Below, one piece after another: positions 3,299-26,105 of a stretch of DNA of 32,000 nt. A program made the translations under genes and the position numbers. The notes under the pieces were generated by a model. It was not told where the DNA came from and did no database searches. It was given only the letters and a program-made list of their open reading frames with translations. Origin of the DNA: Promethearchaeota archaeon (GTDB lineage Archaea; Asgardarchaeota; Lokiarchaeia; Sigyniarchaeales; SOKP01); contig JAUWGH010000006.1 in the NCBI GenBank assembly GCA_030606485.1, forward strand, positions 120,001 through 152,000, read 5' to 3'. Position 1 is the stretch's first letter, and the number at the start of each line of letters is the position of its first letter.

Positions 3299-5491
3299 TT
3301 AGATATGGAGTTTCATTTTCCAAAAAACCAATTTTTTTTGGATTTCATTTATTCCTGCTTCATCTAATACTCCTGGAACACTATTAAGATCAGATATACT
3401 TCGATTAATCGCATCTAAAACACCTGAAAATCCCTTTATCTTTAAAATAGTATCATGTAGCTTTCCTAACAATATGGAAATTTCAACCGCAGATTTTTTA
3501 TTAAGAGATTCTTTGATAAAGTTAAAATATTCGGATAGAACTTCAATAGTAGTTATTTCCATCTTTTCAAAATCCATTATTGAGACGGTTTTTTGTTCTT
3601 CAATAATCTTTTGTTTAGAAACTAAAGACTCTTCCGAAATTGGTGCAGGAGGCTCTATTTCTTCTTGAACTTTAATCTCCTCTTTACTAGGCTCAGGTGG
3701 AAATTCTTTTTTTATCTCTTTTTGAGGTATTTTTGGTTTTTCAAGTGATATTTGAAGTTTTACTGGCTTTTCAATTTCTGATTTAACCACACCTTTATGA
3801 GGACTGTAAAAAACATCTTTTTGAGCTCCGACCCAAGCATCCTCCAAAATTGGTACAAAGATTTTAATATGTTCTTCAATAATACTGCCAATTCCGGCGA
3901 TTTCAGTTTTCATTTCACCTCGAATTTCCGTTTTCGAGATAACACAAATAACCACCTCTTCATAATCTCTATTAATTGCCCATAGATTCTGTAATCTTCT
4001 ATGTCTATAAGAAACATTAGTCATTTGATCTAATTCTTGTAAGATTGCCATATGAGCTGAGGAAGATGGATTAATATTTGCAGCAATTCTAATATTTACA
4101 TGTGATCGTAGTGCTTTTAATGCATCAATATCTATATCCGTAATCTCAGGGGCTACAATTAATATTCTCATTTTAGCCTTTGAAATTTCTTCGTTGATAT
4201 GGGCTTTAGCACCTTCAATAGATCGTATAAACCAAATATCCCTCATAGAAAATAAGGTCACTCTTTTAGCCCTTTCCCAGAATTCAGCGGTAACCTTTTC
4301 ATTAATTTCCAACCTTCTGAGAATATCATCTAAAACATCATCTAAGGTTTTCATTACTTGGTTTGTAAATATATTTTTTAAACCAATAAGTGGTGCTGAA
4401 ATGTTGTCAGTAATTCCAGAGAGTTTCTCTTCCGCCATTACGATTGTTTTACTAAAGCTTTTACTCATATCGGCAAAAATTTCATTTATATTCTCTCCAG
4501 AACTTGCCGTTGTTTTAGTGATCTCATTAATATTGGTAATTAAATTACCCAATAAAGTATTTAATTTTAAACCAAATTTAGAGCTCATTTTTTCATTAAT
4601 TCGCTCTAATCCCACCGCAAAAACTTTTTCTATTACTTGATCTACGGTTTCTTGAATAACTCCAAGTCGTAACTTTTTTAGATTTTCTGAAATTGTACTT
4701 CGAATATCCTCAAAATTCTTACTTAAATCTCCAATTTCTGTTACCATAATTTTTTTTGATTCTTCCTCAATATCCTCAAGTACTTGGGTAACCGGTCTAA
4801 TTTTATCAATTTCAGATAATCTTTTTTCAAAAGCAACTTTTTGAGCATTCATCTTTGATAGCATGTCTTGTTTTAAAGTATTCATGAAATCACCGTAATC
4901 TCGTAATGTCTTAAGACCTTCAGTTTTTTCTTCAAATTGAGAAAATGATCCCTCTAACTGAGGTGAAATATTTTCTTTAATATTTCTTATATAAGAATTA
5001 AAATCTTGTAATTGACTAATTAATGCAGCATAAGGAGGTAATGCAGAATAGTGGGGAGTAGCTCCAATAATTTTTTTATATAATCCTTTTTGAACAAATT
5101 TTTCCGCAATAACTTCGCAATCTTCTTTTGGTTTGCCAATTAAGATTGACATTTCTCCAAGAGATACAGCATCTCTACCTGTTGTTAAAAAATATAATTC
5201 TATTTCATCATCAGATAATTCAATATCACTTAATACTTGTTTTGTTAGTTCCTGAGAATAGGATACATCCTTCTCTAAAATATCTTCGACTTTGAAATTT
5301 ACAATTTCCAAGTATTTATTTAAATACACTATTAATCTATGAGGAGGTGTTCCATGAACATCCACTTTTTTAATAGGAAATTTGGTTGTATTATTATATT
5401 CATCAGCTTTAATTTCAAACTTGATCTCTTCCAAACAAAGCTTACATGTGAAGGGAATTGAAACTTTATCTTTACCATTAAATAAATCCAT
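3299..5491 (-). CDS. Multidomain protein, copy 1: CxxC..H..H Zn-binding domain, TrmB-type wHTH, long helical/coiled-coil region, degenerate PLD-like domain, Pro/Lys/Glu linker, C-terminal helical domain
   Basis: FTCKLC...HGTPPH; TrmB-like LSDDEIELYF...SLGEMSILIG...KGLY...PHYSALPP; IWFIRSIEGAKAHINEEISKAKMRILIVAP matches the start of a TrmB/PLD-like C-domain. Clear paralogue of 12011-14218. Confidence 0.7.
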   Translation of the reverse strand: MDLFNGKDKVSIPFTCKLCLEEIKFEIKADEYNNTTKFPIKKVDVHGTPPHRLIVYLNKYLEIVNFKVEDILEKDVSYSQELTKQVLSDIELSDDEIELYFLTTGRDAVSLGEMSILIGKPKEDCEVIAEKFVQKGLYKKIIGATPHYSALPPYAALISQLQDFNSYIRNIKENISPQLEGSFSQFEEKTEGLKTLRDYGDFMNTLKQDMLSKMNAQKVAFEKRLSEIDKIRPVTQVLEDIEEESKKIMVTEIGDLSKNFEDIRSTISENLKKLRLGVIQETVDQVIEKVFAVGLERINEKMSSKFGLKLNTLLGNLITNINEITKTTASSGENINEIFADMSKSFSKTIVMAEEKLSGITDNISAPLIGLKNIFTNQVMKTLDDVLDDILRRLEINEKVTAEFWERAKRVTLFSMRDIWFIRSIEGAKAHINEEISKAKMRILIVAPEITDIDIDALKALRSHVNIRIAANINPSSSAHMAILQELDQMTNVSYRHRRLQNLWAINRDYEEVVICVISKTEIRGEMKTEIAGIGSIIEEHIKIFVPILEDAWVGAQKDVFYSPHKGVVKSEIEKPVKLQISLEKPKIPQKEIKKEFPPEPSKEEIKVQEEIEPPAPISEESLVSKQKIIEEQKTVSIMDFEKMEITTIEVLSEYFNFIKESLNKKSAVEISILLGKLHDTILKIKGFSGVLDAINRSISDLNSVPGVLDEAGINEIQKKLVFWKMKLHI

Positions 5492-5530: not shown

Positions 5531-6784
5531 TCACCAATCAACCTTTTCAGGGTAAGTAACCTCTAATAATTCCAAGGCTTTTTTTGCAATTTCAATTGAT
5601 ATCTTTTGTTCTTTATCTTCAGATTTAAAAAATTCTCTAATTTTAGGTAATAAAAATTCGGGAAAAATAATAAGTGGCTTAATATCAGTAAGTAATATTA
5701 CCCAACCTTGATCTTCTTTATCTTTAAGTGTAGTAACTATTTTTAAATCTTCTAAAATGCTTAATATAACCTCAATGTCAAACCAATCCGAAAAAATTTT
5801 AGGGAGTTTGTCCAATGGATAATAAGAATTTCTCATTAATGCTAAAAAATCATAACTATCCGGATTTAGAAGTAATCCGGAAATTTTTTTCAACTCTTCA
5901 ACAGATTGTTTATTAACATCATAAGTTGAAAAATAATCTGCAACTTTATCTTTATATATATCATATAAATTTTTCTTATTTTCCCTTAAACGATTTAAAA
6001 TATTTTCATTGGGTAATCTTGCCAATAAAATATCCTTAGTTAAAAACAAATATTCTCCCTTATTTTTGACGATTCCAGTTTCTTTGTCCTTTTCTCCTTT
6101 TATCCAATCACGTCGAATTAAATTTAATTCTAAGAATGGGTCAAGCAATACATCTATATTTATATTCGGTTTCATTCTTTCTAAGATACCTTTTAATTCT
6201 TTTTTTGCGATTGGTCGTTCTCGTAATATCTCTAATATTTTTAATCTCTCATCACTGTGAAAAATTAAAGATGCTTTCTGTAATTTATCTAATTGAGATA
6301 ATCGATCAATTTGAAAAATAGTAAATTTTAATTCACTTTCTATTTTAGAGTGAATTTTCTCAAGCAGAGAAATTTGTTTTAAAGGATTAATATTTATTAA
6401 CTTCTTGAAAATTAAAAGTAATCTTTTTGCCATAGTATTAATTAGATCTTGGAATATTTCTACCTCATCATCCAGTTCAAAAAATGAAATAGTAATATAT
6501 TTTGAACTATCTGTTTCTTGCCTATAATATGATACTACTTGATAAGGTGTTTCCTTCAATCTTCCTGTATAAAAATTACTAAATGCGCCTTTATCTTTAA
6601 ATATCCCAGTTGTATGCTGATAAAATATACCAAAAATATCGTTTATAGAAATTAATTCCGTATAATTGGATTCATTGAACTTTTTGTTATGAAAAATTAA
6701 TTTTATTGGTCTAAATTCTGGCTCAATTTCGCCCGACTCTTCTTGATTTAGAATAAACTGAAAATTTAATATGCCTTGGATCAT
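5531..6784 (-). CDS. Longin-like N-terminal domain plus two winged-helix domains, copy 1
   Basis: Strand/helix pattern b-b-a-b-b-b-a-a from MIQGILNFQF; wHTH-like ERLKILEILRERPIAKKEL...LLDPFLELNLIRRDW and PDSYDFLALMR...LEDLKIV. Paralogue of 18171-19418; ends 39 bp before the 5491 start, so probably co-transcribed with it. Confidence 0.55.
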   Translation of the reverse strand: MIQGILNFQFILNQEESGEIEPEFRPIKLIFHNKKFNESNYTELISINDIFGIFYQHTTGIFKDKGAFSNFYTGRLKETPYQVVSYYRQETDSSKYITISFFELDDEVEIFQDLINTMAKRLLLIFKKLININPLKQISLLEKIHSKIESELKFTIFQIDRLSQLDKLQKASLIFHSDERLKILEILRERPIAKKELKGILERMKPNINIDVLLDPFLELNLIRRDWIKGEKDKETGIVKNKGEYLFLTKDILLARLPNENILNRLRENKKNLYDIYKDKVADYFSTYDVNKQSVEELKKISGLLLNPDSYDFLALMRNSYYPLDKLPKIFSDWFDIEVILSILEDLKIVTTLKDKEDQGWVILLTDIKPLIIFPEFLLPKIREFFKSEDKEQKISIEIAKKALELLEVTYPEKVDW

Positions 6785-7320
6785 TCAAAATCATTCCCGG
6801 AAAGATTATTTAATTTCAATTTTAGTATGCACATTAGATTTATTATAATCTTATACTATAATTATTATATTCAATCTTCATTAATATATTGTTACCTTAG
6901 AAATTCTGATTAAATTTAACAACAATAATTAATTTTATCGAAAACACTTAAATTGTTTTTTGTGCTGTATCTGAGAGAAAAAAAAAACCTATTAGCTAAA
7001 AATATTTTTCTTATAGAATTAACCAAGGAAATTTATCATGATTGCAAATTATTTTAAAGAATGCAATTTCTTTTGCCCTAAGATTTAAGAGATGAGTTAT
7101 TGATGGGATACTCGCTGATTTCAAATGCAAATAAAATGATATAGTAGAATGTTATTTTTAAAAAATTTCATTTATCAGCAAATTATGAGAAATGTAAATA
7201 TTCGTTCCAATTTTCTTTTTTTTATTTTAAATTTTAAAATGCAAAATTACACTGTTTTTAACTTGTTACTTAAATATTTGTGAATATATATTTAGATAGA
7301 ATAGATTAAAATTTCTTAAA

Positions 7321-7821
7321 ATGCCTATAAAGAAAATAGAAGAAATCCCGATAAAAGGGTTAAGTAAGGAATTACAATTAATTATCTTTTTTTACCAAGA
7401 ATATAAAAATAATAATAAAAAAATTGCAGCTGATCAAATTTTTAAAAGGTTTCCACCTCCGGGAAGTGTTTCTTATAACTTAGATAAATTAACAAAACTT
7501 GAATTTTTAAAAAAAGAAATTCTAAATGGCACTTCGCAAAAGTTGGGACAACCGAAGGTTATATACAGTATAAATCCAGACCGTCTTCCTGATGTTGAAC
7601 AATATTTAAAAGAAAATTTATCCCTACTTAAACCCTTATTTTCAATATTATTTGCCGACTCTTCTGCTTCAGAATTGAAAGATAAAAACATTCTTAGACT
7701 TTTTGAAGATTTGAAATTTGAATTAAAATCATATTTAGAAGATCTAAAAATCAAAAATACTCCTAAACAAGTTAAAAAATTGTATGAGAAGATATATCAC
7801 TTTTTTCTTGATAATTCTTGA
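7321..7821 (+). CDS. Winged-helix protein, putative transcription regulator
   Basis: IAADQIFKRF..PGSVSYNLDKLTKLEFLKK...GQPKVIYSIN fits a helix-turn-helix plus wing with a G-x-P-K-x-x-Y wing motif; the C-terminal half is helical. Confidence 0.65.
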   Translation: MPIKKIEEIPIKGLSKELQLIIFFYQEYKNNNKKIAADQIFKRFPPPGSVSYNLDKLTKLEFLKKEILNGTSQKLGQPKVIYSINPDRLPDVEQYLKENLSLLKPLFSILFADSSASELKDKNILRLFEDLKFELKSYLEDLKIKNTPKQVKKLYEKIYHFFLDNS

Positions 7822-8071: not shown

Positions 8072-11000
8072 TTGAAAAAAATATTTAATCGAAATTATAA
8101 AAAAATCTTAATTCTTAGCAGTTTAATGATTATATTATATCTAAATTTTATTACATTTGGTAATATCATAAATGAGTATGTTTATTTTAATAACTATGAT
8201 GACGAAACAAATGAGTTTTTTCAAAATGATAGTATAAGGTCTCAAGATTATTTTGAGCAGCATTTTGATAATATAGAATGGCTTAAAAATAATACTTTTG
8301 ATCCCCCCGTAACTGAATGGTATAATACAACAGAAGGAGATATTACAGATGTAAATGCATCATTAAGTCCAGGTGTGGCAAATTTTGAGGTTCTAGGAGA
8401 TTCGGGAGAAATTAAAATCGATGATCCCTTTGATGACACCAATTGGACGCGTTTCAACAATCCAGAATTCCCAGTTTTACCTGATACTGCTTTAATTAAT
8501 TCAGCTGGCTGTTATATTGCCCATACATGGAATGAAAATGATAATCAAACTCGTAATACTCCTAGTGCCAATTGGAAAAGAAATATCGAAATGCCTGTTA
8601 ACATGTCAGATTATAAAATCACCTCCGCGTCACTTGAGGCAGTATTTAATGCATCTGTACAAGCAACACCTCTTATTGGAGGTATTGAGTGCCCCGGTGA
8701 TTATACTAATGGTCCAGGAAGTGATCCCCAATTTGCTACGGGTGATCAGGCAAAATTTTATGTCTTAATTTCAGATGTTGATCAAATCCAAGAATATAGA
8801 ATAGCATATAATCAAACCATTGATTTAGGACAAGATCTGGGTCCAATTGAAAGTTATGGTGAAACCCAAATGAATTATATTCCAGAGAACGTATTAATTG
8901 ATCTATTAACAGCGATTTTACAATACGATGATTATAACTTTACTATTACTGTAGGAATTGATTTATACTGTGAAGATAATGAATATGGTGCGGATATAGA
9001 CACATGGAACTATTTAATTATCAGATCTCTCAATTTAACTATTACTTACGAAAAATGGGTGAATCAATTTACATCAGTATCTTGGTGTCAAGATGGAGAT
9101 AAAATAAGCGGAACCAATGTCATTATTAAAAACGCCACACTTAACTTTAAATATAAAATTGATCAAAACTGGACTGACTCATCTCCAAATTCCGAAATTA
9201 GAATTTTAATTAATAATTTGTTGCATTCGGAAACCGTTAAATTAAGTACGGCTAATACCTCCTTTCAAGACGCAAAAATTGGTGGATTTGATGTCTCTTC
9301 TTTAATTCCAATAAATGAAAACATTAATACAACAATTCAAGTATATCTCGCAGATACATTTGCATTAGATCAGAAAATCAATATTTCAATTGATGATGTT
9401 TACCTTAAAATTTCTTATAAAATAATTACAATCGGAGAACAAACAGATTTTGTATTGTTTTTAAATGGAGAAAATAAAACTCTGGGAAAATTTCTTAAAG
9501 TTCCTTACGGGGATCCTATAAATATTACTATGAAATACATCAATTTATCGAGAGACTTTATACCGGGTGCAGATGTAACATTAACAGGGCTGGATGGTGT
9601 TAAAGATTTAGATGAAAATGGTCTACATGAACATTATAATATAACGCTCGATACAGGAACTTTTTCACTTGGAGAACATATTTTTACATTATATGCATAT
9701 AAGGAAGGTTATGATCCTCAAGAGATTTCACTTACTATAGAAATAATTGAAAGGACTACTTTTCTTGACGAAATTCACCTAAATCAGACAGAAACTAAAA
9801 TAATTGCATTTCCGTATGGGGAACCTTTGAATATCACAGTAGCATATAGAGATAATGCCACTAAAAATTTCATCGAAGGAGCTGAAGTAAAATTATTTGA
9901 TGGGGAGGATCTTAAAGGAACTTTCGATCAACAACTACCCTATGAACAATATAATCTTACGATAAATACTACTGATATTGGAATTGGATCGAGTCTTTTG
10001 ACAATTTATGCAAGTCAAGATAATTATTCAGCTTCTTTTGATACAATAATAACTGTTATAGAAATGAAAACGGAATTACATCTAGAAATAAATGGTAGTG
10101 AAATATTATATAATGAAGTTTACGAACTTCAAGTAAATGAGTCAATACTACTTACAGTTAACTATACAGACTATTATACTGGGGATCATATTGGGAGTGC
10201 AAATGTATCATTAACAGGGGCAGATATTTCGGAAAATTTAACAGAAAACATAGCATTAAAGCATTATAACATAACTTTGCACGCAGTAAATTTAACTAAA
10301 GGATTTAATTTTTTAACAATTATTGCCCAAAAAGAAGATATTATGCCTCAAGCCATTTCGTTTTCAATTAATATAATTGAGAGAAAAACGGTTCTAAACC
10401 TATTAATCAATGATACGGATATAACAACAACTAAAACTTATGTATTTCAAATAGGGGAAACTATAAACATTAAAGTGGATTATACAGACATTGAAACTGG
10501 ACAATTTATTGACGTTGCAACCATAGAAATAACGGGAGGAGGCATTTCAGCTACTTTAAATGAATATAGTAATTATTATTTGATCACCATAAGCGCAGAA
10601 GATTTAACTCAAGCAATCAACTTTATAAGAATTCTTGCCGAAAAGAAAAATTATCAACCTCAACCTATTGAGTTTAGAATTGATGTTATTGAAAGACAAA
10701 CATATGCAAGTTTCTTATTGAATCAGATAAATAAAACGCTTGATAAGACAATGGAACTTCCAATAGGTGATAATTTAAACATTACTTTTAAATATTTTGA
10801 CGCTAAGACGGGGGAGTATATCAATAATGCAACAGTGCAACTAATAGGAACGGATATTCCTTTGAATTTAACGGAATATTCTCAATTACAACATTATTCG
10901 CTAAATATAGATACAAGAAATTTGACTCGGGTTCAATTTTTAACTATTGTTGCTGAAAAGACGAATTATCAACCCTCATCAAACGTTCTGAAGATAACAG

Positions 11001-11752
11001 TTAGACAAATAAAAACAAATATTTCTGTGGTATCTGGAGAAGTTGTGAATATAGGAGTTGGTGGATCTCATCTTATCAATATTACTATATATGATATAGA
11101 CAATAATGTATCCTTAACCAATGTTACTGTCAGGTTCTCGGGTGATTTAGGCCAAGGAGTTCTTATTGAAGATCCAAATAATCCGGGTTCCTATCAAGCA
11201 TATTTTGAAAATGTAGGGCTTGGTACTTATAGAATTATTATAATTGTTACTGAAAGCAGCGGTGATTATTCATTTGAAGATAAAGAGGTTACATTGAGTG
11301 CAACTATATCTGAAGGAGAAGTCATGTTAATTTGGGGTAGTTTGATAGCATCTATCGTTGCTGCTATTACGATAGGGGGCTATTTCATTGCATATCAGAG
11401 ATACCTTAAATATCCAAAACCAGTTAGAAAGGTTCATAAATTCAAAAGGACTCTAAAGAGGAAATCAACCCCATCAGTAGATATTATTAGTCGTGATGAT
11501 TCATTCAAATCTCTACATAAAGAAGGATTGGGAAAAGTATCTAGATTAAAACCAGGTAAACTAGAAGAAGATAAACTTCCATCAGTCGATATAAAATCTG
11601 AAGCTAAATTTGCAGAAGAAACTCCGTCAACTAAAACGCAACCCGAAATTAAACCTCCTGAAAAAAGCCTGGTTTCTGATGAAAAGTTAAAAAAAAAATC
11701 TGACAAATCAAAAGATAAAACGTTAAACAAATCCAGTAAGACAGATAATTAA
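8072..11752 (+). CDS. Large single-pass cell-surface glycoprotein with about 6 Ig-like repeats, copy 1
   Basis: N-terminal basic-then-hydrophobic signal segment; roughly 105 aa repeats (T.L.L.N...NITV.Y.D...G..I..A.V.L.G...Y.ITI....L..G...LTI.A.K.NY); many NxS/T sequons; C-terminal TM near 11321-11392 and a charged cytoplasmic tail. Confidence 0.85.
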   Translation: MKKIFNRNYKKILILSSLMIILYLNFITFGNIINEYVYFNNYDDETNEFFQNDSIRSQDYFEQHFDNIEWLKNNTFDPPVTEWYNTTEGDITDVNASLSPGVANFEVLGDSGEIKIDDPFDDTNWTRFNNPEFPVLPDTALINSAGCYIAHTWNENDNQTRNTPSANWKRNIEMPVNMSDYKITSASLEAVFNASVQATPLIGGIECPGDYTNGPGSDPQFATGDQAKFYVLISDVDQIQEYRIAYNQTIDLGQDLGPIESYGETQMNYIPENVLIDLLTAILQYDDYNFTITVGIDLYCEDNEYGADIDTWNYLIIRSLNLTITYEKWVNQFTSVSWCQDGDKISGTNVIIKNATLNFKYKIDQNWTDSSPNSEIRILINNLLHSETVKLSTANTSFQDAKIGGFDVSSLIPINENINTTIQVYLADTFALDQKINISIDDVYLKISYKIITIGEQTDFVLFLNGENKTLGKFLKVPYGDPINITMKYINLSRDFIPGADVTLTGLDGVKDLDENGLHEHYNITLDTGTFSLGEHIFTLYAYKEGYDPQEISLTIEIIERTTFLDEIHLNQTETKIIAFPYGEPLNITVAYRDNATKNFIEGAEVKLFDGEDLKGTFDQQLPYEQYNLTINTTDIGIGSSLLTIYASQDNYSASFDTIITVIEMKTELHLEINGSEILYNEVYELQVNESILLTVNYTDYYTGDHIGSANVSLTGADISENLTENIALKHYNITLHAVNLTKGFNFLTIIAQKEDIMPQAISFSINIIERKTVLNLLINDTDITTTKTYVFQIGETINIKVDYTDIETGQFIDVATIEITGGGISATLNEYSNYYLITISAEDLTQAINFIRILAEKKNYQPQPIEFRIDVIERQTYASFLLNQINKTLDKTMELPIGDNLNITFKYFDAKTGEYINNATVQLIGTDIPLNLTEYSQLQHYSLNIDTRNLTRVQFLTIVAEKTNYQPSSNVLKITVRQIKTNISVVSGEVVNIGVGGSHLINITIYDIDNNVSLTNVTVRFSGDLGQGVLIEDPNNPGSYQAYFENVGLGTYRIIIIVTESSGDYSFEDKEVTLSATISEGEVMLIWGSLIASIVAAITIGGYFIAYQRYLKYPKPVRKVHKFKRTLKRKSTPSVDIISRDDSFKSLHKEGLGKVSRLKPGKLEEDKLPSVDIKSEAKFAEETPSTKTQPEIKPPEKSLVSDEKLKKKSDKSKDKTLNKSSKTDN
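9437..11305 (+). repeat. About six tandem Ig-like domain repeats (approximately 105 aa each)
   Basis: Repeat junctions IEIIE-RTT, ITVIE-MKT, INIIE-RKT, IDVIE-RQT and ITVRQ-IKT are visible in the translation; boundaries are approximate. Confidence 0.75.
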
Positions 11753-12010: not shown

Positions 12011-14218
12011 TTATAAATTCATTTTCTTTTTCCAAAAATTCAATTTTTTCTCTAATTCTTTTTGTTCTTCATTATTTAATACATTTAGTTGAGTAGTAAG
12101 AGGAGGGATAGTATTTTTTATGCCAATTAAAACTCCCAAAAATCCTTTGATCTTCAAAATAGCACCTTGTAATTTTATTAACTGTTTGGAAATTTCTACA
12201 CCAGTTTTTTTCTCAAGCTGGTTTTTTATAAATTCAAAATAGTTTGCTAAATCATTGAGTGTTGTTATTTCAGAACTTTCAACCTCAGCAGAAACTATGT
12301 TTTCTTTTTCTCGAATTATTTTTTTTTCAGGAATTTGAGTTTGTACTGAAGTAGATTGAGCGGTCTTCATTGGTTCTAGTTTTTGAGGTTTTATATTTAT
12401 GGGAGTTTCCATTTTATCTTTTGTTTCAATTTGTCCTTTTATCTCTATCTTTTTAGATTGGAAGGATGGTTGAGTCGGTTGGGGGCTTACAGGTATTTGT
12501 TCTGAAGGTTTAGTACCTCTTCTTTCAAGGACATGGAAAATTTCTTTACGTGCTCCAATCCAAGCCTCTTCTAAAATCGGTGCAAATATTTTTATATGTT
12601 CTTCAATTATGCTGCCAATGCCAGCAATTTCAGTTATCTCCTTACCTCCAACTTCCGATTTTGATACTACACAGAGTACAACTTCTTCATGATCTTTATT
12701 AACTCCCCATAAGTTTTGCATTTCTCGATGCCTATAGGTGACATTTTGCATCTGGTCTAATTCTTGTAAAATCGCTACGTGAGCGGAAGAAGAAGGATCT
12801 ATATTGGTCGCAATCCTGATGTTTATAAATTTTGGAATTTTCTGAAGGGCATTAACATCAATATCTGTGAGTTGAGGAGTAATAATTAATAACCTCATTT
12901 TTGCTTTTGAAATTTGTTCATTAATATGAGCTTTCGCACTTTCAATAGATCCTATAAACCAAATATCTCTCATCGTAAATTGCGAAACTCTTTTAGATCT
13001 ATCCCAAAACTCTCTGGTGGTTATGTCGCTAATCTCTAATCTATTTAGAATTTTTTTTAAAACATCTTCAAAGGTTTTAATAACTCTAATTGAAAAATCA
13101 TTTCTTAAGTTGCTAAATGATTCTAAAATCGCTTCAGAAATTCCTGAAAGCTTCTCTTCTGCCATTATTATTGTTTTATTAAAATTTATACTTATATTAC
13201 CAAAAATATTTTTCATATTTTCTCCAGTCTGTGCCGTAGAGTTAGTGATATCATTCATATTGTTAATCATTGTTCCTAATATTTTATTTAATTTTAAAAT
13301 AAATTGTTCATTGAACTCTTTATTAATCTCCTCTAATCCTATTTCAAAAACTTTTTGAATTATCTGCTCTACGGTTTTTTGAATAACTCCAAGACGTAAA
13401 TTTTTCAGATTTAGGGAAATCTTTTTCTGTATATCATTAAATTTTTTACTTAGATTTTCAATTTGTGTTTCCATAATCTTTCTTGTTTCATCCTCAAGAC
13501 CTCCAATTACCTCAGTAATCGCTTTTATTTTATCGATTTCGGCTAAACCATTCTCAAAATCTGCTTTTTGAGAACTCATTTTTGATAACATATCTTCATT
13601 TAAATTATTCATAAAATCGCTATAATCTTTAAGCTTTTTAACACCTTCAGCTTTTGATTCCATTTGAGCTAATGATTGTTTTAATTGAGGTGGAACCTTT
13701 TCTATAATATCACTTATAAACGAGTTAAAATTTTTTAATTGACTTATTAAGGCAGCATAAGGAGGTAGCGCAGCATAATGTGGTGTACCTCCAATGACTT
13801 TTTTATATAATCCCTTTTGAACAAATTTTTCAGCAATTGTTTCACATTCTTCTTTAGGTTTATCAATTAAAATCGATATTTCTCCAAGAGATACTGCAGG
13901 TCTCCCAGTTGTCAAGAAATATAATTCTATTTCCTCATCGGATAGTTCAATTTCGCTTAAAACTTGTCTAGTTAATTCACGAGAATAAGATACGTCTTTT
14001 TCTATAATATCTTCTATATTAAAATTTGCAATCTCTAAATTCTTATCAAAAAATACGATCAATCTATGTGGAGGTTCACCATGAATATTTTCTTTTCTAA
14101 TAGGAAATTCTGTAGTATTTTTATACTCTTCCGCTGTAATTACCAATTTTATTTCCTTTAAACAAGATTTGCATATAAAAGGGATTGTTATTTCTTCTTG
14201 ATCTTTAAATAAATACAT
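12011..14218 (-). CDS. Multidomain Zn-finger / TrmB-type wHTH / coiled-coil / degenerate PLD-like protein, copy 2
   Basis: FICKSC...HGEPPH; same domain order as 3299-5491; the wHTH segment is 67/77 identical to copy 1 by hand count. Confidence 0.7.
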   Translation of the reverse strand: MYLFKDQEEITIPFICKSCLKEIKLVITAEEYKNTTEFPIRKENIHGEPPHRLIVFFDKNLEIANFNIEDIIEKDVSYSRELTRQVLSEIELSDEEIELYFLTTGRPAVSLGEISILIDKPKEECETIAEKFVQKGLYKKVIGGTPHYAALPPYAALISQLKNFNSFISDIIEKVPPQLKQSLAQMESKAEGVKKLKDYSDFMNNLNEDMLSKMSSQKADFENGLAEIDKIKAITEVIGGLEDETRKIMETQIENLSKKFNDIQKKISLNLKNLRLGVIQKTVEQIIQKVFEIGLEEINKEFNEQFILKLNKILGTMINNMNDITNSTAQTGENMKNIFGNISINFNKTIIMAEEKLSGISEAILESFSNLRNDFSIRVIKTFEDVLKKILNRLEISDITTREFWDRSKRVSQFTMRDIWFIGSIESAKAHINEQISKAKMRLLIITPQLTDIDVNALQKIPKFINIRIATNIDPSSSAHVAILQELDQMQNVTYRHREMQNLWGVNKDHEEVVLCVVSKSEVGGKEITEIAGIGSIIEEHIKIFAPILEEAWIGARKEIFHVLERRGTKPSEQIPVSPQPTQPSFQSKKIEIKGQIETKDKMETPINIKPQKLEPMKTAQSTSVQTQIPEKKIIREKENIVSAEVESSEITTLNDLANYFEFIKNQLEKKTGVEISKQLIKLQGAILKIKGFLGVLIGIKNTIPPLTTQLNVLNNEEQKELEKKLNFWKKKMNL

Positions 14219-18170: not shown

Positions 18171-19418
18171 TTAGAATTCAACTTTCTCTGGATAAGCAAC
18201 TTCTAATAATTCGAGGGCTTTCTTAGCAATTTCATGTGTTATTCTTTCATCTTTATTTTTAAAAGCTTCTCTGATTTTAGGAAGTAAGTATTCAGGAAAA
18301 AATATTAGAGGTTTAATATCAGTTAATAAAAATATCCAATTCCTTTCATCTTTATCTTTTATCTCAATTATCACATTAGACTCTTTTAAATCATTTAATA
18401 TCATTTCAGTATCGGCGAATTCTGAAAAAATCTTTGGCATTTTATCTAAGGGATAATATTTACTTCTCATTAAAACGAAAAAATCATATACATCTGGATT
18501 CAAAAGAATAGAAGCTAAATATTTCGTTTCTTCAATGGACTGTGTATTAGGATCGTACTTAGAAAAGAAATCAACTACTTTTTGTTCATATTTAGGATAT
18601 AACACATGATTGATTTCTTTTAAATGGTTTAATAATTTTATGTCTGGAACTCGGACTAAAAATATATCTTTTGTTAAAAATAAAAATTCACCCTGACGAC
18701 CAATTAAACCCGTTCTTTTATCCCTTTTTCCTTTAATCCAATCACGTTTTATTAAGTTTAATTCTAAAAAAGGGTCAAGTAGCACATCCACATTAGGATT
18801 CTCTTTTATTTTTTCTAATGCATTTCTCAATTCATTTTTTGAAATAGGTTTTTCTCGTAAAAGTTCTAATATTTTTAGTCTCTCTTCACTTTGAAAAATC
18901 AAAGCTGCTTTCTGTATTTTATCTAATTGAGATAAACGATCAATTTCAAAGATGGCAAATTTTAATTCACTCTCAATTTTAGAAATCATTTTATCAAGCA
19001 GAGAAATTTGCTTTAATTCACTTATTTTTACTAATGCTTCGAAATTACTATTTAATTTTTCTGCCATATTTTTAATTATATCCCAAAATATTTCGACCTC
19101 ATCCTCCAATTCAAAAATTGATATCGTTAAATATTGAAAACCATCAGATTCTTGTCTAAAATATGAAACAATTTGATATGGTGTTTCTTTTAATCTTCCT
19201 GAGTAAAAATTACTAAAAACACCTTTATCTGCAACTATTCCAGTTGTATGTTGATAAAATATTCCAAAAATATCATTTTGAACAATTAATTCCGAATAAT
19301 TAGCTTCAGTGAATTTTTGATTATTAAAAACTAGTTTTATCGGTCTGAATTCCGGTACAAATTCGCCCGTTTCTGTTTGATTTAAAACAAATTTAAAAAT
19401 TAAAATACCTTGAATCAT
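18171..19418 (-). CDS. Longin-like N-terminal domain plus two winged-helix domains, copy 2
   Basis: 45/60 identical to 5531-6784 over the first 60 residues (hand count), with similarity along the whole length to the C-terminal YPEKV(DW/EF). Confidence 0.55.
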   Translation of the reverse strand: MIQGILIFKFVLNQTETGEFVPEFRPIKLVFNNQKFTEANYSELIVQNDIFGIFYQHTTGIVADKGVFSNFYSGRLKETPYQIVSYFRQESDGFQYLTISIFELEDEVEIFWDIIKNMAEKLNSNFEALVKISELKQISLLDKMISKIESELKFAIFEIDRLSQLDKIQKAALIFQSEERLKILELLREKPISKNELRNALEKIKENPNVDVLLDPFLELNLIKRDWIKGKRDKRTGLIGRQGEFLFLTKDIFLVRVPDIKLLNHLKEINHVLYPKYEQKVVDFFSKYDPNTQSIEETKYLASILLNPDVYDFFVLMRSKYYPLDKMPKIFSEFADTEMILNDLKESNVIIEIKDKDERNWIFLLTDIKPLIFFPEYLLPKIREAFKNKDERITHEIAKKALELLEVAYPEKVEF

Positions 19419-19544: not shown

Positions 19545-19589
19545 CTCCCAAATATTTATAATAAGTGGTAAAAATTAGGGTTGGTTATT

Positions 19590-22500
19590 TTGAAAAAAAA
19601 AAATAGCATAAGTTATAAAAAAATTTTAATTCTATTCAGTTTAATACTTATATTCTCTTTAATTTTCATTACGCCTGGTATTTACACAAATAAAAATGGA
19701 TATTTTAATAATCCTACTGATGAAACTAATACTGATGAAATCAATACTGATCTTCAGAATAAAGATTTTAGGTCTCAAGGTATAACCTCCGATAATATTT
19801 ATTCAGGAATTGGGGCTCCTTGGAATCTAACTCATTGGGCTAATCGAACGGATTATGATATCCCAGTAGATTTTACTAGTCCACTTATACCTAATGATGA
19901 TGGTAAATGGGGTAGAATGTGTCCGCTTGTAATACAATCTAGTAAGGTTAATAGCGACTTATCGAATTTCACTATCCTTTTAACAAATGATACACTTCCA
20001 TCTGAAATGTTTAATGCAGATGGTCTTTACCCTGCATTAGATGGTGGAGGGGATATTCGTTTTTCGACCGATCTAAACGGTGACAACCTTCTTCCCTGTG
20101 AAATAGTCACATTTACAACTGATAACAACCCTGCTAACGGTAAAGCTGAGATTTGGGTTAAAGTTCCTTCTATTAGTTCCTCTACCGATACCACCATCTA
20201 TGTCTGGTATAACAAACTTGGATACAACGAAGCTGCAATGAACCAACCTGCTGCGGATGATATTCTTGGTTCGGAAGCTGTGTGGTCAAATAACTTTGAG
20301 GGCGTTTGGCATTTGAATGAAAGTTCTGGGAGCGCAAAAGACAGTACATCTAATGGATATGATGGCTCTTTTCAAGGAGATTTACCAGACGCTCAAATTG
20401 GACAAATTGGGGAGGGACAAGATCTTGATGGAACCGGCGATTATGTAGATATAGGCGATGCAGGAACTGGGATACAGACTATTGAGTTTTGGATGGAATC
20501 AGATGATCTTACTGATAGTTTGGATACTGATACTGGTTGGAATATTCCAAGTAATTATGATGATGATTATTGGGATTGGGATTATCCAGGTAATGTCTCC
20601 ACAAATAATAATCAATACGCATCAGAGCCCGATGCTAGTGGTTCACAAGATTGGTATGACTTTAATTTTGGTATACCCGGCGGTTCTTCGATCAATGGTA
20701 TTTGGGTACATATTGAAGCAAATGAAATGGGTGTGGGTACTGCTGGTGCAGACATTGAACTTTCTTGGAATGGAGGTAATTCTTATACCAGCACAGGTTA
20801 TGGAGATGACTACTCTGGTTCTGATGTTAATTATTATTATGGTAGTTCATCAGATCTTTGGGGCAGAGTATCATGGGCTGATACTGAATTAAGCAACGCT
20901 AATTTTAGGGTTAGATTAACGAAAAATGGTGTAACAACTCCTAGAGTTGACCTTCTAAGGGTAAGGGTTTATTATACCATAACCAACGTTAACAGGAAAA
21001 TAATTGATATAGATGGTACCGACCAGATAGAAATCGACGGAAGTACTGCTGATATACTTGCCACTAGTTTTCCAGGTACTACAACAATTTATGTAGACGG
21101 AGCAGTTGCATCTGGTGTAACAACAAACTGGCATCATGTTGTAATTACTGATACGACCGGAGTCAATCCTTCTGATATGGATATTGGTCGAGTTTCATCA
21201 AGGTACTTTGACGGTATCATCGATGAGGTCCGGATCTCAGATACTGTAAGAAGTGCCGACTGGATTAATTCACTATACAACAATCAAGATGATCCGAGCA
21301 CCTTTGTTATTAACGGAACTCCAATAGAGGGCGGCATCATCTCAATCTATATTATCGAACAAATATCTAATATTGTAGATATGCCTTTAGATCTTGGGTG
21401 GCAAGGTAAAAAATTAAACGCTACCATAAAGGACTTGTATGATAAAAGAAATTGGATCAATGGAACTTTCCACGCTGGACCTGATGATAATGACCCTTCC
21501 TGTCCTGAAAATGATAGTATTTATCTTCAAAATTGGACTTATGGTGAATATGATGTTGTGGGTGATTATAGTAATGATATGTCTGGAAATTATTTTGATA
21601 GCACAAACGATCCTTCTAACAATGGCAGTGATTGCTTGGAATTAAGAATGGATGGAGATGGTTTTGGATATGATAAATATGATAGATGTTGGTGGGAGTC
21701 GAATTTCACTTTGCCAAGGGGAAAGGTGATTGAGGGTGAAATAAATCTTGTGATATGTCCTTATACGCAATATTACGAAACCCGTGAGTTTGGAACGCAT
21801 TGGAGTGTTCAAGTTATCTTAAATGGTATAGTAATTGATGACAAGAATCTTATATGGTTAGAATATAGTGGGGGTGGTGATTGGTATCCCTTGAAATTAC
21901 AGTTAACGAATTGGTTAGACGATCCAATAGTATTTCCGGATAATGAGAAAAATATGAGCCTTAGGATACAATTAATAAGAAATGGACCAACACTTAGTCA
22001 CGGCCCGTATGGTTCATATCAACAAGTACTTTTTGATGACGTATCATTAATCGTAAAAACAGAGGTTAAACCTACTCAAATCGGCTTAAAAATGAACCAA
22101 ACTGCTGTTATAGATACTTCAAATTGGGGTGAAGGCACTGTAGAAATAGATGGTGATTGGAATGGCACCCAGTTTCCTTTAGTGCACGCTAATTTTAGCA
22201 ATGATGAGGTCTGGGCATTAGGTGATTATGATATCGATTTTAAAACGAATGTAAATCTTTTTGCGACAAAACATACTCCAGAAACTAATTATGAGACAAA
22301 TGCAGCTTCGTTAGGCACCGGGTTTTCTGTAAGTAATGATAGTTTAGTAAATTGGGAATGTTATGGGTATACTTCGGTCCCAACGGGATATGCCGAAACA
22401 GAAATGAGACTTGAATTTCCAACTGATGTTTATATCACTTGGGTTTCCTATCCTTCAGACCCGCTTATTAATAAATTAGATTTATGTGATAATTCAACTG

Positions 22501-25500
22501 CTGGACTTTTAATTGTTAACGTGTCCAAAATATCAGCTACACCAGATGGTTTTTGGAAGTTTGAAGCAATATCCCCAAATTATTTTGAGCAATTAAATAT
22601 ATATAACAATGCTACAGGTAGTTGGATCGAAGATAACGAATTTTTAAGTGGAGAATATATAAATATTACTGCGAAAATAACGAATAGTCCATTGATATCT
22701 GCTTATATTTTGGATACTAAAGCAATTCTCCATGTAAGATTCCCAAATGGCACTATATGGACAGAAAAAACACAAGAAAAAAACCTTATTTCAAACGGTT
22801 TTGTTTATTTTGATTCTTTTCAAATACCTTCCAACATTCCTAATTATAAAGTAGGAGAATATGATGCAATAATTTCGTGGAATAATTCTCATTCTATTTA
22901 TGGGTTAAATGAAACTGGCATAATCTACAAAAAATTTACCGTAATTCACAATTCTACATTAATACCTGACCAAAGCTATTACGCAGATATATTTGAAGGC
23001 ACTTCAATAAATTTAAAAGTTTCATTTAATGATCTTAAAGATGGCAAGGCTATAGAGGGTGCTGTTGTATATACATATAATTTTACTCATCCTACTATAA
23101 TACAGAATTTCAGTGAAATTAGTCCAGGTTATTATGTTTTTTTAGATTTTAATGTTAGTGGTGCTCCACAAGCTGGTGATAATATTATAACAATTTATGC
23201 AAATTCTTCTTTATATACGAATAATGAAGTTGATGTAACTATTGAAGTAATAAAAGCAACGACTCTTACTGTAGATAAGTCAATTTTATCTGTCCAGTGG
23301 AATGATAATTTTACAATCCAATTAAACTATACTGAGGAAGTTAGTGGGACAGGTATTGATACTACACCAATAAATAATTGGGTAGGAGAAACCCATACTG
23401 TTAGAATCTCTCAAGGAGTATATAACATAACTTGTAATAGTTCCGCATATGAAGTAAATAAACGTTATAATTTATATGTTGATTTTAATGAAACTGGTTA
23501 TGAAACACAATCAATAACAACTATAATTGAAATTGTTGAAAGAGAAACATATATCGACGATATTTTCATAAATGGTAGTGATTGCACGACTAATAAATCT
23601 TATAATGTTAAAGCAGGAGAACTTTTGAATCTTACCGTAAAATATAGGGATATTGAAACAGGTGGGACTTTTATTAATAATGCTCTAGTAAAATTAATAG
23701 GAACGGGAATAGAAAAGACTTTTAACGAAAGGATATCATTCCAATACTATAACTTAACTTTAAATTCAACAGAATTAGGTGTTGGCGTAAAGTTTTTAAC
23801 TATTACTGCTCAAAAAGATAATTATACATCTGCTTCAGAATTGTTAACCATAACTGTTTTTGAAAGAGGAACTAATTATATTTTATATTTGAATGAAACT
23901 GATTCTACAAGCGATCCATCTTACCAACTAACTGATAACCAGCTCTTGAATATCACTGTCTCCTATATAGATACAATATTGACGGAACATATTAGTGGTG
24001 CTACAGTGGATATAAACGGATCAGGAATCTCTAAACAATTTGTTGAGGCTTTCAATAATTATTCTGTAGAAATAAATTCGACAGATTTAAATCTAGGTGT
24101 AAATTTTTTAACTATCTATGCTCAAAAAGAAACTTATGAACCCCAATCAATACTGATTACAATAGAAGTAATACAAATAGAAACAGAATTAAATCTATAT
24201 TTAGATGGAGAGGATAAAACAAGTGAACCATCAATTACAAAATATACAAATCAGAGCTTAAATATTACAATATCGTATAGAGAGTTCGAAATACCCAATA
24301 AACATGTTAGCGGAGCTATAGTGGACATAAATGGATCAGGAATATCTGAGCCTTTATATGAGGCATTCAATAATTATTCTGTGCTTATAAATACGACTAA
24401 ATTAAATCTAGGAGCAAATTTTTTAACAATTTATGCTCGTAAAGATAAGTATGAACCACAAACGATTTTACTTTCGATAGAGATAATACAAATAGAAACA
24501 AATTTAACATTATATAAAAATGGGATAGATATAACAGCTATACCATCAATTAAACAATACACAAATCAAATTCTAAATATTACAGTATCATATAAAGAGG
24601 CTACAGGTCCCTACAAACATGTGAGCGGCGCTATAGTTGATATAAATGGATCGGGAATTTCAAAGGTTTTTAATGAATTAGGAACCAATTATTCAGTTCT
24701 TATTGATACTACAAATCTTAATCAAGGAGCAAATTTTCTGACAATTTATGCTCGTAAAGAAAACTTTGAGCCTCAAACGATTTTACTTACAATAGAGATA
24801 ATACAAATAGAAACAGACTTAAAGTTATTTTTAAATGGAGTGGATAAAACAAATGAACCTTCTATTGACGTAATTACACTTGAAACTTTAAATATCACTA
24901 TAAAATATACCACTTATGGAACTGGAGTCCATATTAGTAATGCAACAATTGAATTATCTGGAAGTGGACTTTCGATAAATATAAGTGAAAATCTTGGTTT
25001 AAAGCAATATTCATTTATTATTAATACAATAGATTTAAACGTAGGATTTAATTTCTTAACAGTTTATGCTCAGAAAAGCAATTATGAAGCTCAAACGATT
25101 TTAATCACAATACAGCTAATTGAAAGAAAAGCATATGATGAGATATATTTAGACAATGAAGATAAAACACTTGAAAAATCAATCGAAACTCCAATAGGTA
25201 AGGAGTTAAATATCACTTTTAAATATTTTGACGATATAACAGGAAATCACATTCCTCAAGCACTAGTACAACTTATAGGAGCAGGACATACTTGGAATTT
25301 TACGGAAAATAATTCATTAAAGCAATATTCGCTAATTATAGATACTACAGAATTAGATATTGGACTTAAATTTCTAACCATATATGCTCAAAGGACATAT
25401 TATCAATCTTCTTCAGAGCTTTTAGAGATAACTGTTAGACAAATAAAAACAAATATTACAACAGAATCTGGAGAAGATGTAATAAATATACAAGCTGGTG

Positions 25501-26105
25501 AATCTTATACTCTAAGAATAACTTTACATGATTTAGATTTTGGAAGTATAATAAAGAATGCAACTGTTAGATATACATGGGAATTAGGACAAGGTTACCT
25601 TACAGATGATGATAATAATGGCATTTTTGAGGTCACATTAGAAAATATACCTGAAGGCACTTTTACTATTACTTTCACTATTTTGAATGTAAGTGATGAT
25701 TATTTATTTGAGCGAAAAACAATAACTCTAAATGTGGTTAGTCCTCCAGAAGAAACTCTAATATTTCTGATATTAACTATAGTCGCCATTGCTGCCTTTA
25801 TTAGTGTCACCAGTTATTTCATAGCATATCAAAGAGTATTAAAGTATCCAAAACCTGTTAGAAAAATTCATAAATTCAAGAAGACTTTAAAGAAGAAAAA
25901 ATCTCCTGATGTTGAAATTCTCTCGAGTAAAGTTCTATTAAAAGCCCTCTACAATGAAGAATTAGATCCTGTTGCTAAACTTTTTAAAGGGAAGATGAAA
26001 TATGAACAACCAGAAAAACAACTAGAACTAAAACCATCAAAAGATGAATTAATTGATACTTTATCCGAAATATCACCTGAAGAATCCGAAAAAAATGAGA
26101 AATAA
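19590..26105 (+). CDS. Giant single-pass cell-surface glycoprotein: DUF2341 + LamG/ConA-like domain, further beta-rich domains and about 9 Ig-like repeats, copy 2
   Basis: DUF2341-like GGDIRFS...CEIV...AEIWVKVP...IYVWY; LamG-like GVWHLNE...DGTGDYV...WHHV...FDGIIDEVRIS; Ig repeats; TM and tail as in 8072-11752. TTG 19590 is preferred over 19581 because it aligns MKK.....YKKILIL with copy 1. Confidence 0.85.
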   Translation: MKKKNSISYKKILILFSLILIFSLIFITPGIYTNKNGYFNNPTDETNTDEINTDLQNKDFRSQGITSDNIYSGIGAPWNLTHWANRTDYDIPVDFTSPLIPNDDGKWGRMCPLVIQSSKVNSDLSNFTILLTNDTLPSEMFNADGLYPALDGGGDIRFSTDLNGDNLLPCEIVTFTTDNNPANGKAEIWVKVPSISSSTDTTIYVWYNKLGYNEAAMNQPAADDILGSEAVWSNNFEGVWHLNESSGSAKDSTSNGYDGSFQGDLPDAQIGQIGEGQDLDGTGDYVDIGDAGTGIQTIEFWMESDDLTDSLDTDTGWNIPSNYDDDYWDWDYPGNVSTNNNQYASEPDASGSQDWYDFNFGIPGGSSINGIWVHIEANEMGVGTAGADIELSWNGGNSYTSTGYGDDYSGSDVNYYYGSSSDLWGRVSWADTELSNANFRVRLTKNGVTTPRVDLLRVRVYYTITNVNRKIIDIDGTDQIEIDGSTADILATSFPGTTTIYVDGAVASGVTTNWHHVVITDTTGVNPSDMDIGRVSSRYFDGIIDEVRISDTVRSADWINSLYNNQDDPSTFVINGTPIEGGIISIYIIEQISNIVDMPLDLGWQGKKLNATIKDLYDKRNWINGTFHAGPDDNDPSCPENDSIYLQNWTYGEYDVVGDYSNDMSGNYFDSTNDPSNNGSDCLELRMDGDGFGYDKYDRCWWESNFTLPRGKVIEGEINLVICPYTQYYETREFGTHWSVQVILNGIVIDDKNLIWLEYSGGGDWYPLKLQLTNWLDDPIVFPDNEKNMSLRIQLIRNGPTLSHGPYGSYQQVLFDDVSLIVKTEVKPTQIGLKMNQTAVIDTSNWGEGTVEIDGDWNGTQFPLVHANFSNDEVWALGDYDIDFKTNVNLFATKHTPETNYETNAASLGTGFSVSNDSLVNWECYGYTSVPTGYAETEMRLEFPTDVYITWVSYPSDPLINKLDLCDNSTAGLLIVNVSKISATPDGFWKFEAISPNYFEQLNIYNNATGSWIEDNEFLSGEYINITAKITNSPLISAYILDTKAILHVRFPNGTIWTEKTQEKNLISNGFVYFDSFQIPSNIPNYKVGEYDAIISWNNSHSIYGLNETGIIYKKFTVIHNSTLIPDQSYYADIFEGTSINLKVSFNDLKDGKAIEGAVVYTYNFTHPTIIQNFSEISPGYYVFLDFNVSGAPQAGDNIITIYANSSLYTNNEVDVTIEVIKATTLTVDKSILSVQWNDNFTIQLNYTEEVSGTGIDTTPINNWVGETHTVRISQGVYNITCNSSAYEVNKRYNLYVDFNETGYETQSITTIIEIVERETYIDDIFINGSDCTTNKSYNVKAGELLNLTVKYRDIETGGTFINNALVKLIGTGIEKTFNERISFQYYNLTLNSTELGVGVKFLTITAQKDNYTSASELLTITVFERGTNYILYLNETDSTSDPSYQLTDNQLLNITVSYIDTILTEHISGATVDINGSGISKQFVEAFNNYSVEINSTDLNLGVNFLTIYAQKETYEPQSILITIEVIQIETELNLYLDGEDKTSEPSITKYTNQSLNITISYREFEIPNKHVSGAIVDINGSGISEPLYEAFNNYSVLINTTKLNLGANFLTIYARKDKYEPQTILLSIEIIQIETNLTLYKNGIDITAIPSIKQYTNQILNITVSYKEATGPYKHVSGAIVDINGSGISKVFNELGTNYSVLIDTTNLNQGANFLTIYARKENFEPQTILLTIEIIQIETDLKLFLNGVDKTNEPSIDVITLETLNITIKYTTYGTGVHISNATIELSGSGLSINISENLGLKQYSFIINTIDLNVGFNFLTVYAQKSNYEAQTILITIQLIERKAYDEIYLDNEDKTLEKSIETPIGKELNITFKYFDDITGNHIPQALVQLIGAGHTWNFTENNSLKQYSLIIDTTELDIGLKFLTIYAQRTYYQSSSELLEITVRQIKTNITTESGEDVINIQAGESYTLRITLHDLDFGSIIKNATVRYTWELGQGYLTDDDNNGIFEVTLENIPEGTFTITFTILNVSDDYLFERKTITLNVVSPPEETLIFLILTIVAIAAFISVTSYFIAYQRVLKYPKPVRKIHKFKKTLKKKKSPDVEILSSKVLLKALYNEELDPVAKLFKGKMKYEQPEKQLELKPSKDELIDTLSEISPEESEKNEK
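23860..25115 (+). repeat. Tandem 315-bp (105 aa) Ig-like repeats
   Basis: The identical junction ATACAAATAGAAACA occurs at 24171, 24486 and 24801 (exact 315-bp spacing); VDINGSGIS and NFLTIYA recur; outer boundaries are approximate. Confidence 0.85.

Follow-up and report, generated by a model that had tools for sequence, protein, structure and literature searches.

LWH, a Lokiarchaeial family of longin and tandem winged-helix proteins encoded with large single-pass surface proteins

Here, we describe a gene in a 32,000-nucleotide stretch of DNA from a Promethearchaeota archaeon (assembly GCA_030606485.1, contig JAUWGH010000006.1, forward-strand positions 120,001 to 152,000), referred to below as the window; its G+C content is about 29%, and its gene content is of the Asgard type. 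The gene, LWH-A (5531..6784, minus strand), encodes a 417-aa protein, P0001, which is a member of an unnamed Lokiarchaeial family, here called LWH, whose members carry a helical hairpin and two winged helices behind a longin head; P0001 also has C-terminal helices. LWH genes lie beside, or are fused to, genes for large single-pass surface proteins with a conserved cytoplasmic tail, and in most sampled loci a gene for a 730-aa protein, T730, follows directly downstream. We tentatively propose, with a little less than even confidence, that P0001 is a cytoplasmic, tail-proximal adaptor of these surface proteins and works together with T730.

Results

LWH is a Lokiarchaeial protein family of narrow distribution

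The P0001 gene was delineated from its open reading frame (ORF) and translation, an AlphaFold2 model, and its homologues. The ORF starts with ATG, and the N terminus, MIQGIL, is common to all homologues. A word-indexed search of a 5.8-billion-protein set retrieved 592 LWH relatives, most of them exactly 417 aa long and 57 to 62% identical, and an exhaustive search yielded 139 clusters at 50% identity; a family of this size and constant length is far beyond chance. The latter set includes shorter relatives of about 365 to 380 aa that aligned end to end with the family. P0001 belongs to the family on two counts: it aligns with other members over its full length, and its gene shows the association with a single-pass, tail-bearing surface protein, by adjacency or fusion, that marks the family. 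The window itself carries a paralogue, LWH-B (P0002, 415 aa; 18171..19418, minus strand), which is convergent with a GTPase gene and divergent from the gene for surface protein 2. An earlier, sequence-only reading of this DNA had paired the two genes, and P0001 and P0002 are indeed 65% identical over their full length. A third, distant copy of 366 aa lies on another contig of the same genome (G000 C10, locus L088, 3589-9170).

The 417-aa type was found in 40/40 of group f1 and also in f2, and the canonical tail of the neighboring surface proteins in 37/40 of f1, in 1/3 of f2, and weakly in f21. The two thus share the same narrow range, namely, the window's GTDB family and one order-mate. Several loci (L010, L011, L018, L026, L055, L074, L080, and others) come from metagenome-assembled genomes (MAGs) whose NCBI titles say Hod-, Hermod-, Thor-, or Odinarchaeota. 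The LWH proteins of these oddly titled MAGs nest within Promethearchaeota clades, and in the GTDB-based sample the 417-aa type is confined to the window's family and the one order-mate; the titles therefore look unreliable.

Searches of named databases added little. Neither P0001 nor P0002 matched a Pfam family or the sequence of a solved structure. Over these two and 32 members, Pfam returned only weak matches of winged helix-turn-helix (wHTH) type (e.g., HVO_A0261_N in 12 members), and nothing meaningful was found when the PDB was searched by sequence and by profile with LWH. Atlas searches gave only Asgard clusters without names and one Longin-Pfam cluster (template modeling [TM] scores, 0.32/0.51).

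P0001 combines a longin domain with two winged helices

An AlphaFold2 model of P0001, built on a 32-row alignment, had a predicted local distance difference test (pLDDT) score of 88.5 and a predicted TM score of 0.75. DSSP assigned to this model strands at residues 2-14, 20-31, 68-75, 81-89, and 95-103 and helices at residues 47-58, 108-130, and 138-163. The order of these elements over residues 2-163, strand-strand-helix-strand-strand-strand-helix-helix, is that of the longin topology. The model was then compared with solved structures by VIA-align, an aligner independent of Foldseek, whose best matches spanned 131 to 152 residues. Against more than 25 solved longin domains, Z scores ranged from 12.3 to 9.3 over 114 to 152 residues. 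The highest score was obtained with a Lokiarchaeal Roadblock-Longin protein (Z, 12.3), followed by Lst4 (11.9), chains of the FLCN-FNIP2 complex (11.9 and 11.3), and C9orf72/SMCR8 (11.6), with VAMP7 at 11.2, a TRAPP chain at 10.5, and a SEA-complex chain at 10.4. Chain B of the GATOR1 complex, which we take to be NPRL2 from its chain length, matched residues 6-144 with a Z score of 11.7 and a root mean square deviation (rmsd) of 2.9 over 131 residues. Because the model topology and the VIA-align matches point the same way, we regard the longin fold as certain; the domain comprises residues 1-165 (6290..6784, minus strand; Z, 12.3 to 11.3). The ranking is suggestive of closeness to the FLCN/NPRL/SMCR8 group, but other longins score within about 1 Z unit in these model-based comparisons.

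Modeled alone, the C-terminal half of P0001 reached a pLDDT score of 94.2 and formed two winged-helix domains. The first (wH1; residues 164-258; 6011..6295, minus strand) has an extended basic wing and matched SrnR (Z, 7.4) and YtfH (Z, 6.8) over residues 1-90 of the half model. The second (wH2; residues 293-376; 5657..5908, minus strand) ends in a conserved FPE(Y/F) and matched CzrA and an ArsR repressor (Z, 6.9) over half-model residues 128-210; F374, P375, and E376 are nearly invariant throughout the family. Each domain superposed on wHTH domains of the ArsR/SmtB type with Z scores of 6 to 7.4 and rmsd values of 2.6 to 3.1 over 76 to 81 residues. In Foldseek searches of the PDB, longins and wHTH proteins occupied the top rows for both models, with weak E values (0.01 or more). 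The sequence-only reading had thus parsed the protein correctly: its N-terminal 160 or so residues are a longin domain, and the similar last strands of its two wHTH-like units are wing hairpins in the model (strands 243-248/251-257 and 360-364/367-373). P0002 carries both of the strand segments quoted there as well.

LWH proteins are acidic. In both wHTH domains of P0001, the helix at the recognition position has a net charge of -3, with family medians of -2 and -1 for the two helices. Conserved residues at the surface are found not in these helices but in the wings and behind wing 2. Across the family, the median net charge is -9 for the longin domain and -4 for wH2, and the median isoelectric point is 5.3. 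Two proteins from other genomes, P0169 (720 aa) and P0180 (625 aa), lack the longin head and carry the tandem winged-helix half together with three helix-hairpin-helix repeat units; the tandem winged-helix module is therefore combinable with a domain of DNA-binding type.

LWH genes are linked and fused to surface proteins with a conserved cytoplasmic tail

Divergently from LWH-A, the window encodes surface protein 1 (1226 aa; 8072..11752, plus strand), which has a signal-like N-terminal segment, a large ectodomain, one transmembrane helix, and a cytoplasmic tail. The juxtamembrane part of this tail (11390..11605, plus strand) is conserved and shows the motif AYQ.yLKYPkPVRKV.K...L...P...I...F. 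Surface protein 2 (2174 aa; 19581..26105, plus strand), next to LWH-B, carries the same motif at about 25824-26042. When the 94 tails were compared, Y2, Y8, P9, R13, K14, and L22 were invariant, and the tail was strongly basic. Surface proteins at LWH loci share a signal-like N terminus and one transmembrane helix near the C terminus, and the first 40 or so residues of their tails are extremely conserved. The whole genome of the window contains exactly two strong tail matches, that of surface protein 1 and one at 25824-26033, so that each LWH copy of the 417-aa type has one beside it.

We examined gene neighborhoods in a sample of 79 loci, with one genome per species. A surface-protein gene lay divergently upstream of LWH in 71/71 testable loci, at a median distance of 266 bp; loci with a complete flank showed between one and five of these genes. 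Three clusters at 50% identity (P0198, P0204, and P0240) hold the ectodomain, the transmembrane helix, the tail motif, and a complete LWH module in one chain. The linkage extends to other families of the phylum, in which six distant relatives (about 365 aa) were sampled: four of them form an operon with a single-pass protein of 860 to 1550 aa, the tails of which have a related P-x-hydrophobic-x-K-K motif. Among the four is the distant third copy at L088, from the same genome as the window; its start lies at the stop codon of the gene for a single-pass protein of 1493 aa, in whose tail the motif variant RIPEFTKKVNKMRKAIK is followed by PE-rich repeats. In addition, a cross-match of LWH and tail profiles showed that at least 15 genes of the 375-aa type directly follow a tail match encoded on their own strand. 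A complex prediction for LWH with a 72-residue tail scored 0.00, which counts neither for nor against binding.

T730 is the regular downstream partner

A T730 homologue was found directly downstream of LWH, on the same strand, in 73/79 loci, with gaps of 9 to 61 bp (median, 33 bp). In the window, T730-A (730 aa; 3299..5491, minus strand) lies 39 bp downstream of LWH-A. It starts with a CxxC/H Zn-ribbon-like segment and a TrmB-like wHTH domain, continues with amphipathic helices over about 250 aa and a globular domain that is conserved, and ends in a helical domain. Searches against Pfam and PDB profiles gave compositional or weak matches only, with no strong domain model. For the central 250 or so residues, 7/20 members matched Apolipoprotein (PF01442, the A1/A4/E amphipathic-helix family; best E value, 2.9e-5), and these predicted helices could point to membrane or lipid binding. 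TrmB was matched weakly by 5/20 members and is present in 33% of the members of a neighboring cluster in the Atlas language-model space; the recognition helix of this TrmB-like unit is acidic, as judged by eye.

A second cassette adds Roadblock-GTPase genes

The arrangement described above, which we call type A, is the commoner one among the 79 loci and encodes no GTPase (73/79). The second copy in the window stands in a different order, type B: T730-B (minus strand), two GTPase genes (plus strand), LWH-B (minus strand), and surface protein 2 (plus strand). T730-B (735 aa; 12011..14218, minus strand) is a paralogue of T730-A with 57% identity. Between it and LWH-B, two tandem genes of the Ras family (14525-16168 and 16398-18035, plus strand; Pfam Ras E value, 1e-41) encode proteins of 545 to 547 aa. 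In 4 of the 79 loci, a long Ras-family GTPase gene is likewise placed convergently between LWH and T730. Altogether, the type-B order recurs in at least 12 loci from several genera, with the GTPase gene 30 to 140 bp from LWH-B; it was found with a single GTPase gene in six further loci from two other genera (L089-L094) and in L007, L008, L065, and L069. The three-domain (Roadblock-GTPase) family itself is present in 44/46 genomes of the window's family. Its genes often form tandem pairs, in the window and in other genomes (G147:C154, G153:C36, and G132:C33), an arrangement that recalls paired Rag-type GTPases.

In trees, the main type-A clade had a support of 99, the type-B copies fell into three basal groups, and the two copies of the window grouped together with a support of 94 to 98; a single origin of type B is still compatible with this picture. 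The paralogue pair is more than a genus-level duplication, as type-B cassettes are present in other genera too. It recurs across the family, and for type B the link to a GTPase is real. The neighboring GTPases named in the sequence-only reading are encoded in the cassette of the other copy, not in that of LWH-A. Several genomes have two copies of the 417-aa type, each with its own partner genes, and because each has its own T730 and surface protein, the two copies look like parallel modules rather than an obligate heterodimer.

The likeness to NPRL2 and NPRL3 is one of layout

According to Levine et al. 2013 (PMC3747258), NPRL2 and NPRL3 begin with a longin domain, behind which stand at least two wHTH repeats. 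P0001 has the same layout, and the architectural analogy to Nprl2/Nprl3 drawn in the sequence-only reading is therefore correct; the part of it that does not stand is membership at the sequence level. The NPR2/NPR3 models of Pfam gave no match in P0001 or P0002 at E values up to 10 and none in 32 members at E values up to 1, and NPR2 (PF06218) matched nothing in the whole genome at E values up to 1. The best 50 matches of the C-terminal half were prokaryotic-type wHTH domains with Z scores of 7.4 or less; no GATOR1 chain, NPRL C-terminal domain, ESCRT-II, or other eukaryotic tandem winged-helix protein was among these best 50, and the match to the GATOR1 chain is limited to residues 1-164.

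The same reading had proposed that the FY(T/S)GRLKETPYQ segment, which is kept in both P0001 and P0002 as it had noted, is a candidate arginine-finger loop. The arginine in question, R75 (codon 6560..6562, minus strand), is the last residue of strand 3 (DSSP, 68-75) and the least conserved residue of the motif, in which G74, L76, K77, and T79 are almost invariant. Among 75 type-A orthologues, it is R in 60, K in 9, H in 5, and M in 1 (15/75 non-R), and four more distant full-length members have Q, K, H, or T at this position. The GTPase-adjacent type-B copies have R in 12/12, a count that is not significant because the copies come from about three clades; the finger idea thus survives for the second copy, P0002, with low odds.

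The position of R75 is also unfavorable. From the topology of the model, an antiparallel sheet of order 2-1-5-4-3, R75 would lie at one edge of the sheet and the beta1-beta2 and beta4-beta5 loops at the other. The fingers of NPRL2 and FLCN presumably lie in the beta4-beta5 loop, and Arg78 of Nprl2 is reportedly the subject of a 2019 paper by Shen et al. In the beta4-beta5 stretch of LWH, no Arg is conserved and K predominates at position 88, and the sole invariant Arg of the longin domain is R161 in helix 3. Longins that act as GTPase-activating proteins (GAPs) are defined by a GP motif that ends the beta1-beta2 loop and an arginine finger beside this loop (PMC12290439). Asgard longins of the FLCN/SMCR8 type keep both features, whereas LWH has neither in that form: the 417-aa type has an invariant G18 and P22 in its beta1-beta2 region, spaced G-x-x-x-P, and the 375-aa type has neither residue. 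The strand-level place of the known fingers is taken from PMC12290439 and from the NPRL2 and FLCN sequences. Altogether, homology to NPRL2/3 and an arginine-finger mechanism are not supported.

Further likenesses and differences can be set out in the same manner. Like NPRL2/NPRL3 (GATOR1; Npr2/Npr3 of yeast SEACIT), LWH has wHTH domains behind a longin domain, occurs as paralogues, and has a small GTPase gene in one of its cassettes, and its longin superposes on the GATOR1 chain (Z, 11.7) and the SEA-complex chain (Z, 10.4). Unlike them, it lacks an NPR2 sequence match, a conserved Arg at the finger site, and a contiguous GP motif; its C-terminal wHTH domains match prokaryotic ArsR-type proteins and, among the best 50 matches, no NPRL C-terminal domain; and where the NPRL proteins have DEPDC5 and Rag as partners, those predicted for LWH from gene context are surface-protein tails and the 730-aa protein. 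The Longin-DENN GAP longins (FLCN/FNIP, Lst4, and SMCR8/C9orf72) are among the best matches of the longin head (Z, 11.9, 11.9, 11.6, and 11.3), but LWH has no DENN domain. The same fold is found in AP sigma, the N domain of AP mu, VAMP7, Sec22, and Ykt6 (Z, 9.3 to 11.2); the likeness is at the level of the fold only, as LWH has neither an adaptin large chain nor a SNARE motif, and its tandem wHTH half has no counterpart there. Finally, each C-terminal domain superposes on ArsR/SmtB repressors (Z, 6 to 7.4), but the recognition-position helices of LWH are acidic and hydrophobic, and the domains stand in tandem within a longer chain that showed no features of a metal site or dimer.

Expression and other features of the locus

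Contigs from one metatranscriptomic library cover positions 5682-6854 with 95 to 99% identity, a hint that LWH-A is expressed in a close strain, although DNA carry-over in the library could account for them as well. These contigs do not cover T730 or the surface gene, and they are uninformative on such an absence. The contigs over LWH-A stop some 50 to 70 nt upstream of the start codon (6834-6854), with one loose end at 6854; this end may be a transcript end or merely a strain difference. The DNA of the window occurs in cold-seep and marine-sediment sequencing runs from about ten studies.

Between LWH-A and surface protein 1 lies an ORF of 166 aa (7321-7821, plus strand), the middle part of which is wHTH-like; with it, the divergent gap is widened to 1287 bp. 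Among the fetched loci, this ORF was present only in the two closest relatives, L004 and L006, with 93 to 97% identity, and it had no Pfam match.

Discussion

The fold, the family, the gene linkage, and the fusions are what the data show, whereas physical binding, a direction of signaling, and any action on a GTPase are inferred. In the adaptor model that we tentatively favor, the two winged helices of LWH would serve as protein-binding modules, the acidic surfaces of the longin domain and wH2 would engage the basic tail or the adjoining membrane, and T730, which is co-transcribed with LWH and combines amphipathic helical repeats with other domains, would be recruited as an effector or scaffold. 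Since the tail is basic and the longin domain and wH2 are acidic, direct contact between LWH and the tail is plausible, as far as sequence can tell. The role proposed for LWH has a parallel in eukaryotic adaptin chains and SNARE longins, which act beside cytoplasmic tails of membrane proteins. Longin and roadblock domains are in general GTPase platforms; by analogy, the longin head of type B may also serve as a platform for the GTPase, not as an arginine-finger GAP in the manner of NPRL2. The setting would suit such an adaptor: cultured Lokiarchaeia have no S-layer and bear many complex surface proteins on a single membrane (PMC9834061).

Several points weigh against this model. Divergent genes together with three wHTH domains over two proteins are the classic signature of a regulator and its target. 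The basic juxtamembrane stretch could merely obey the positive-inside rule and bind lipids. The gene neighborhood cannot separate an adaptor from a chaperone, a sorting factor, or a signal transducer. Moreover, T730 is not adjacent to the distant relatives of about 365 aa, and the three-part module is therefore limited to one family.

The first of these points leads to a different explanation, in which LWH and T730 are DNA-binding wHTH regulators of the divergent surface genes and the longin-like head is a sensor or dimerization domain. The divergent layout with a short intergenic region at all 71 testable loci fits this explanation well, as do the best matches of both wHTH domains to ArsR/SmtB repressors, the weak TrmB signals of T730, the joining of the tandem winged helices to DNA-binding-type repeats in P0169 and P0180, and the asCOG label of the HTH part, category K. 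On the other hand, the predicted recognition-position helices are net negative and hydrophobic in proteins that are acidic overall, and surface conservation falls on the wings and the stretch behind wing 2 instead. Simple regulation would need neither the fusion of LWH behind a transmembrane helix and tail nor the co-directional operons, and the longin fold is typical of partners in membrane traffic and of GTPases. We therefore consider such regulators unlikely.

It is similarly improbable, in our judgment, that LWH is chiefly a longin platform for the Roadblock-GTPase family, whether as a guanine nucleotide exchange factor-like protein, an effector, or an anchor, with no arginine finger and with the tail as a mere membrane anchor, as LAMTOR1 is for Ragulator. 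Longin and roadblock dimers are general GTPase platforms (PMC3747258), the GTPase family is nearly universal in the window's family, and its gene is a close neighbor of LWH-B in several genera. The commoner type-A cassette has no GTPase, however, and no GTPase gene was adjacent at any of the six distant loci examined.

An Nprl2/Nprl3-like heterodimer of P0001 and P0002 that acts as a GAP on the neighboring GTPases with R75 as its finger is very unlikely: the shared layout, the GATOR1, FLCN-FNIP2, Lst4, and C9orf72/SMCR8 scores, the conserved G18 and P22, the uniform R75 of the GTPase-adjacent type-B copies, and the conserved GTPase gene of their cassette speak for it, but R75 varies among nearly invariant neighbors and ends a strand at the wrong edge of the predicted sheet, the beta4-beta5 Arg, the contiguous GP motif, and any NPR2 match in family or genome are lacking, VAMP7 and TRAPP longins score almost as high, and each copy has its own T730 and surface protein.

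Many Asgard proteins have an NPRL2-like longin domain (Liu et al., bioRxiv 10.1101/2020.10.19.343400), and the asCOGs labeled NPRL2-like longin domain in a table of PMC9834061 are probably the multi-copy 375-aa type and the 417-aa type described here; the table gives no sequences. Candidate orthogroups for these proteins are cog.008476, cog.000164, and cog.010269. As far as we searched, no paper ties longin-HTH proteins to surface-protein tails, to the 730-aa partner, or to the GTPase cassette, and a literature search on Lokiarchaeal surface proteins with cytoplasmic tails returned nothing relevant. Asgard longin, roadblock, and small-GTPase genes are rarely in informative operons (PMC10933270). 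They are numerous, yet for hardly any of them is it known where the product acts or with what partner. LWH is a longin protein with fixed genomic partners, namely, the surface proteins, the helical T730, and, in type B, a GTPase. The large surface proteins linked to LWH probably make up the unusual Lokiarchaeal envelope.

The family also carries a caution, namely, that the GAP mechanism of NPRL2 is not to be transferred on architecture alone. At the same time, it turns the question of what longins did before eukaryotic endomembranes into specific binding and localization experiments in organisms that can now be cultivated. In the broadest scenario, which we regard as quite a long shot, the tail, LWH, the Roadblock-GTPase, and the 730-aa protein form a membrane-anchored GTPase signaling or sorting module in Lokiarchaeia, akin to Ragulator-Rag-GATOR/FLCN or to a primitive cargo adaptor, with receptor tails in place of the lipid anchor. 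If true, such a module would be a prokaryotic forerunner of longin-based control at eukaryotic membranes.

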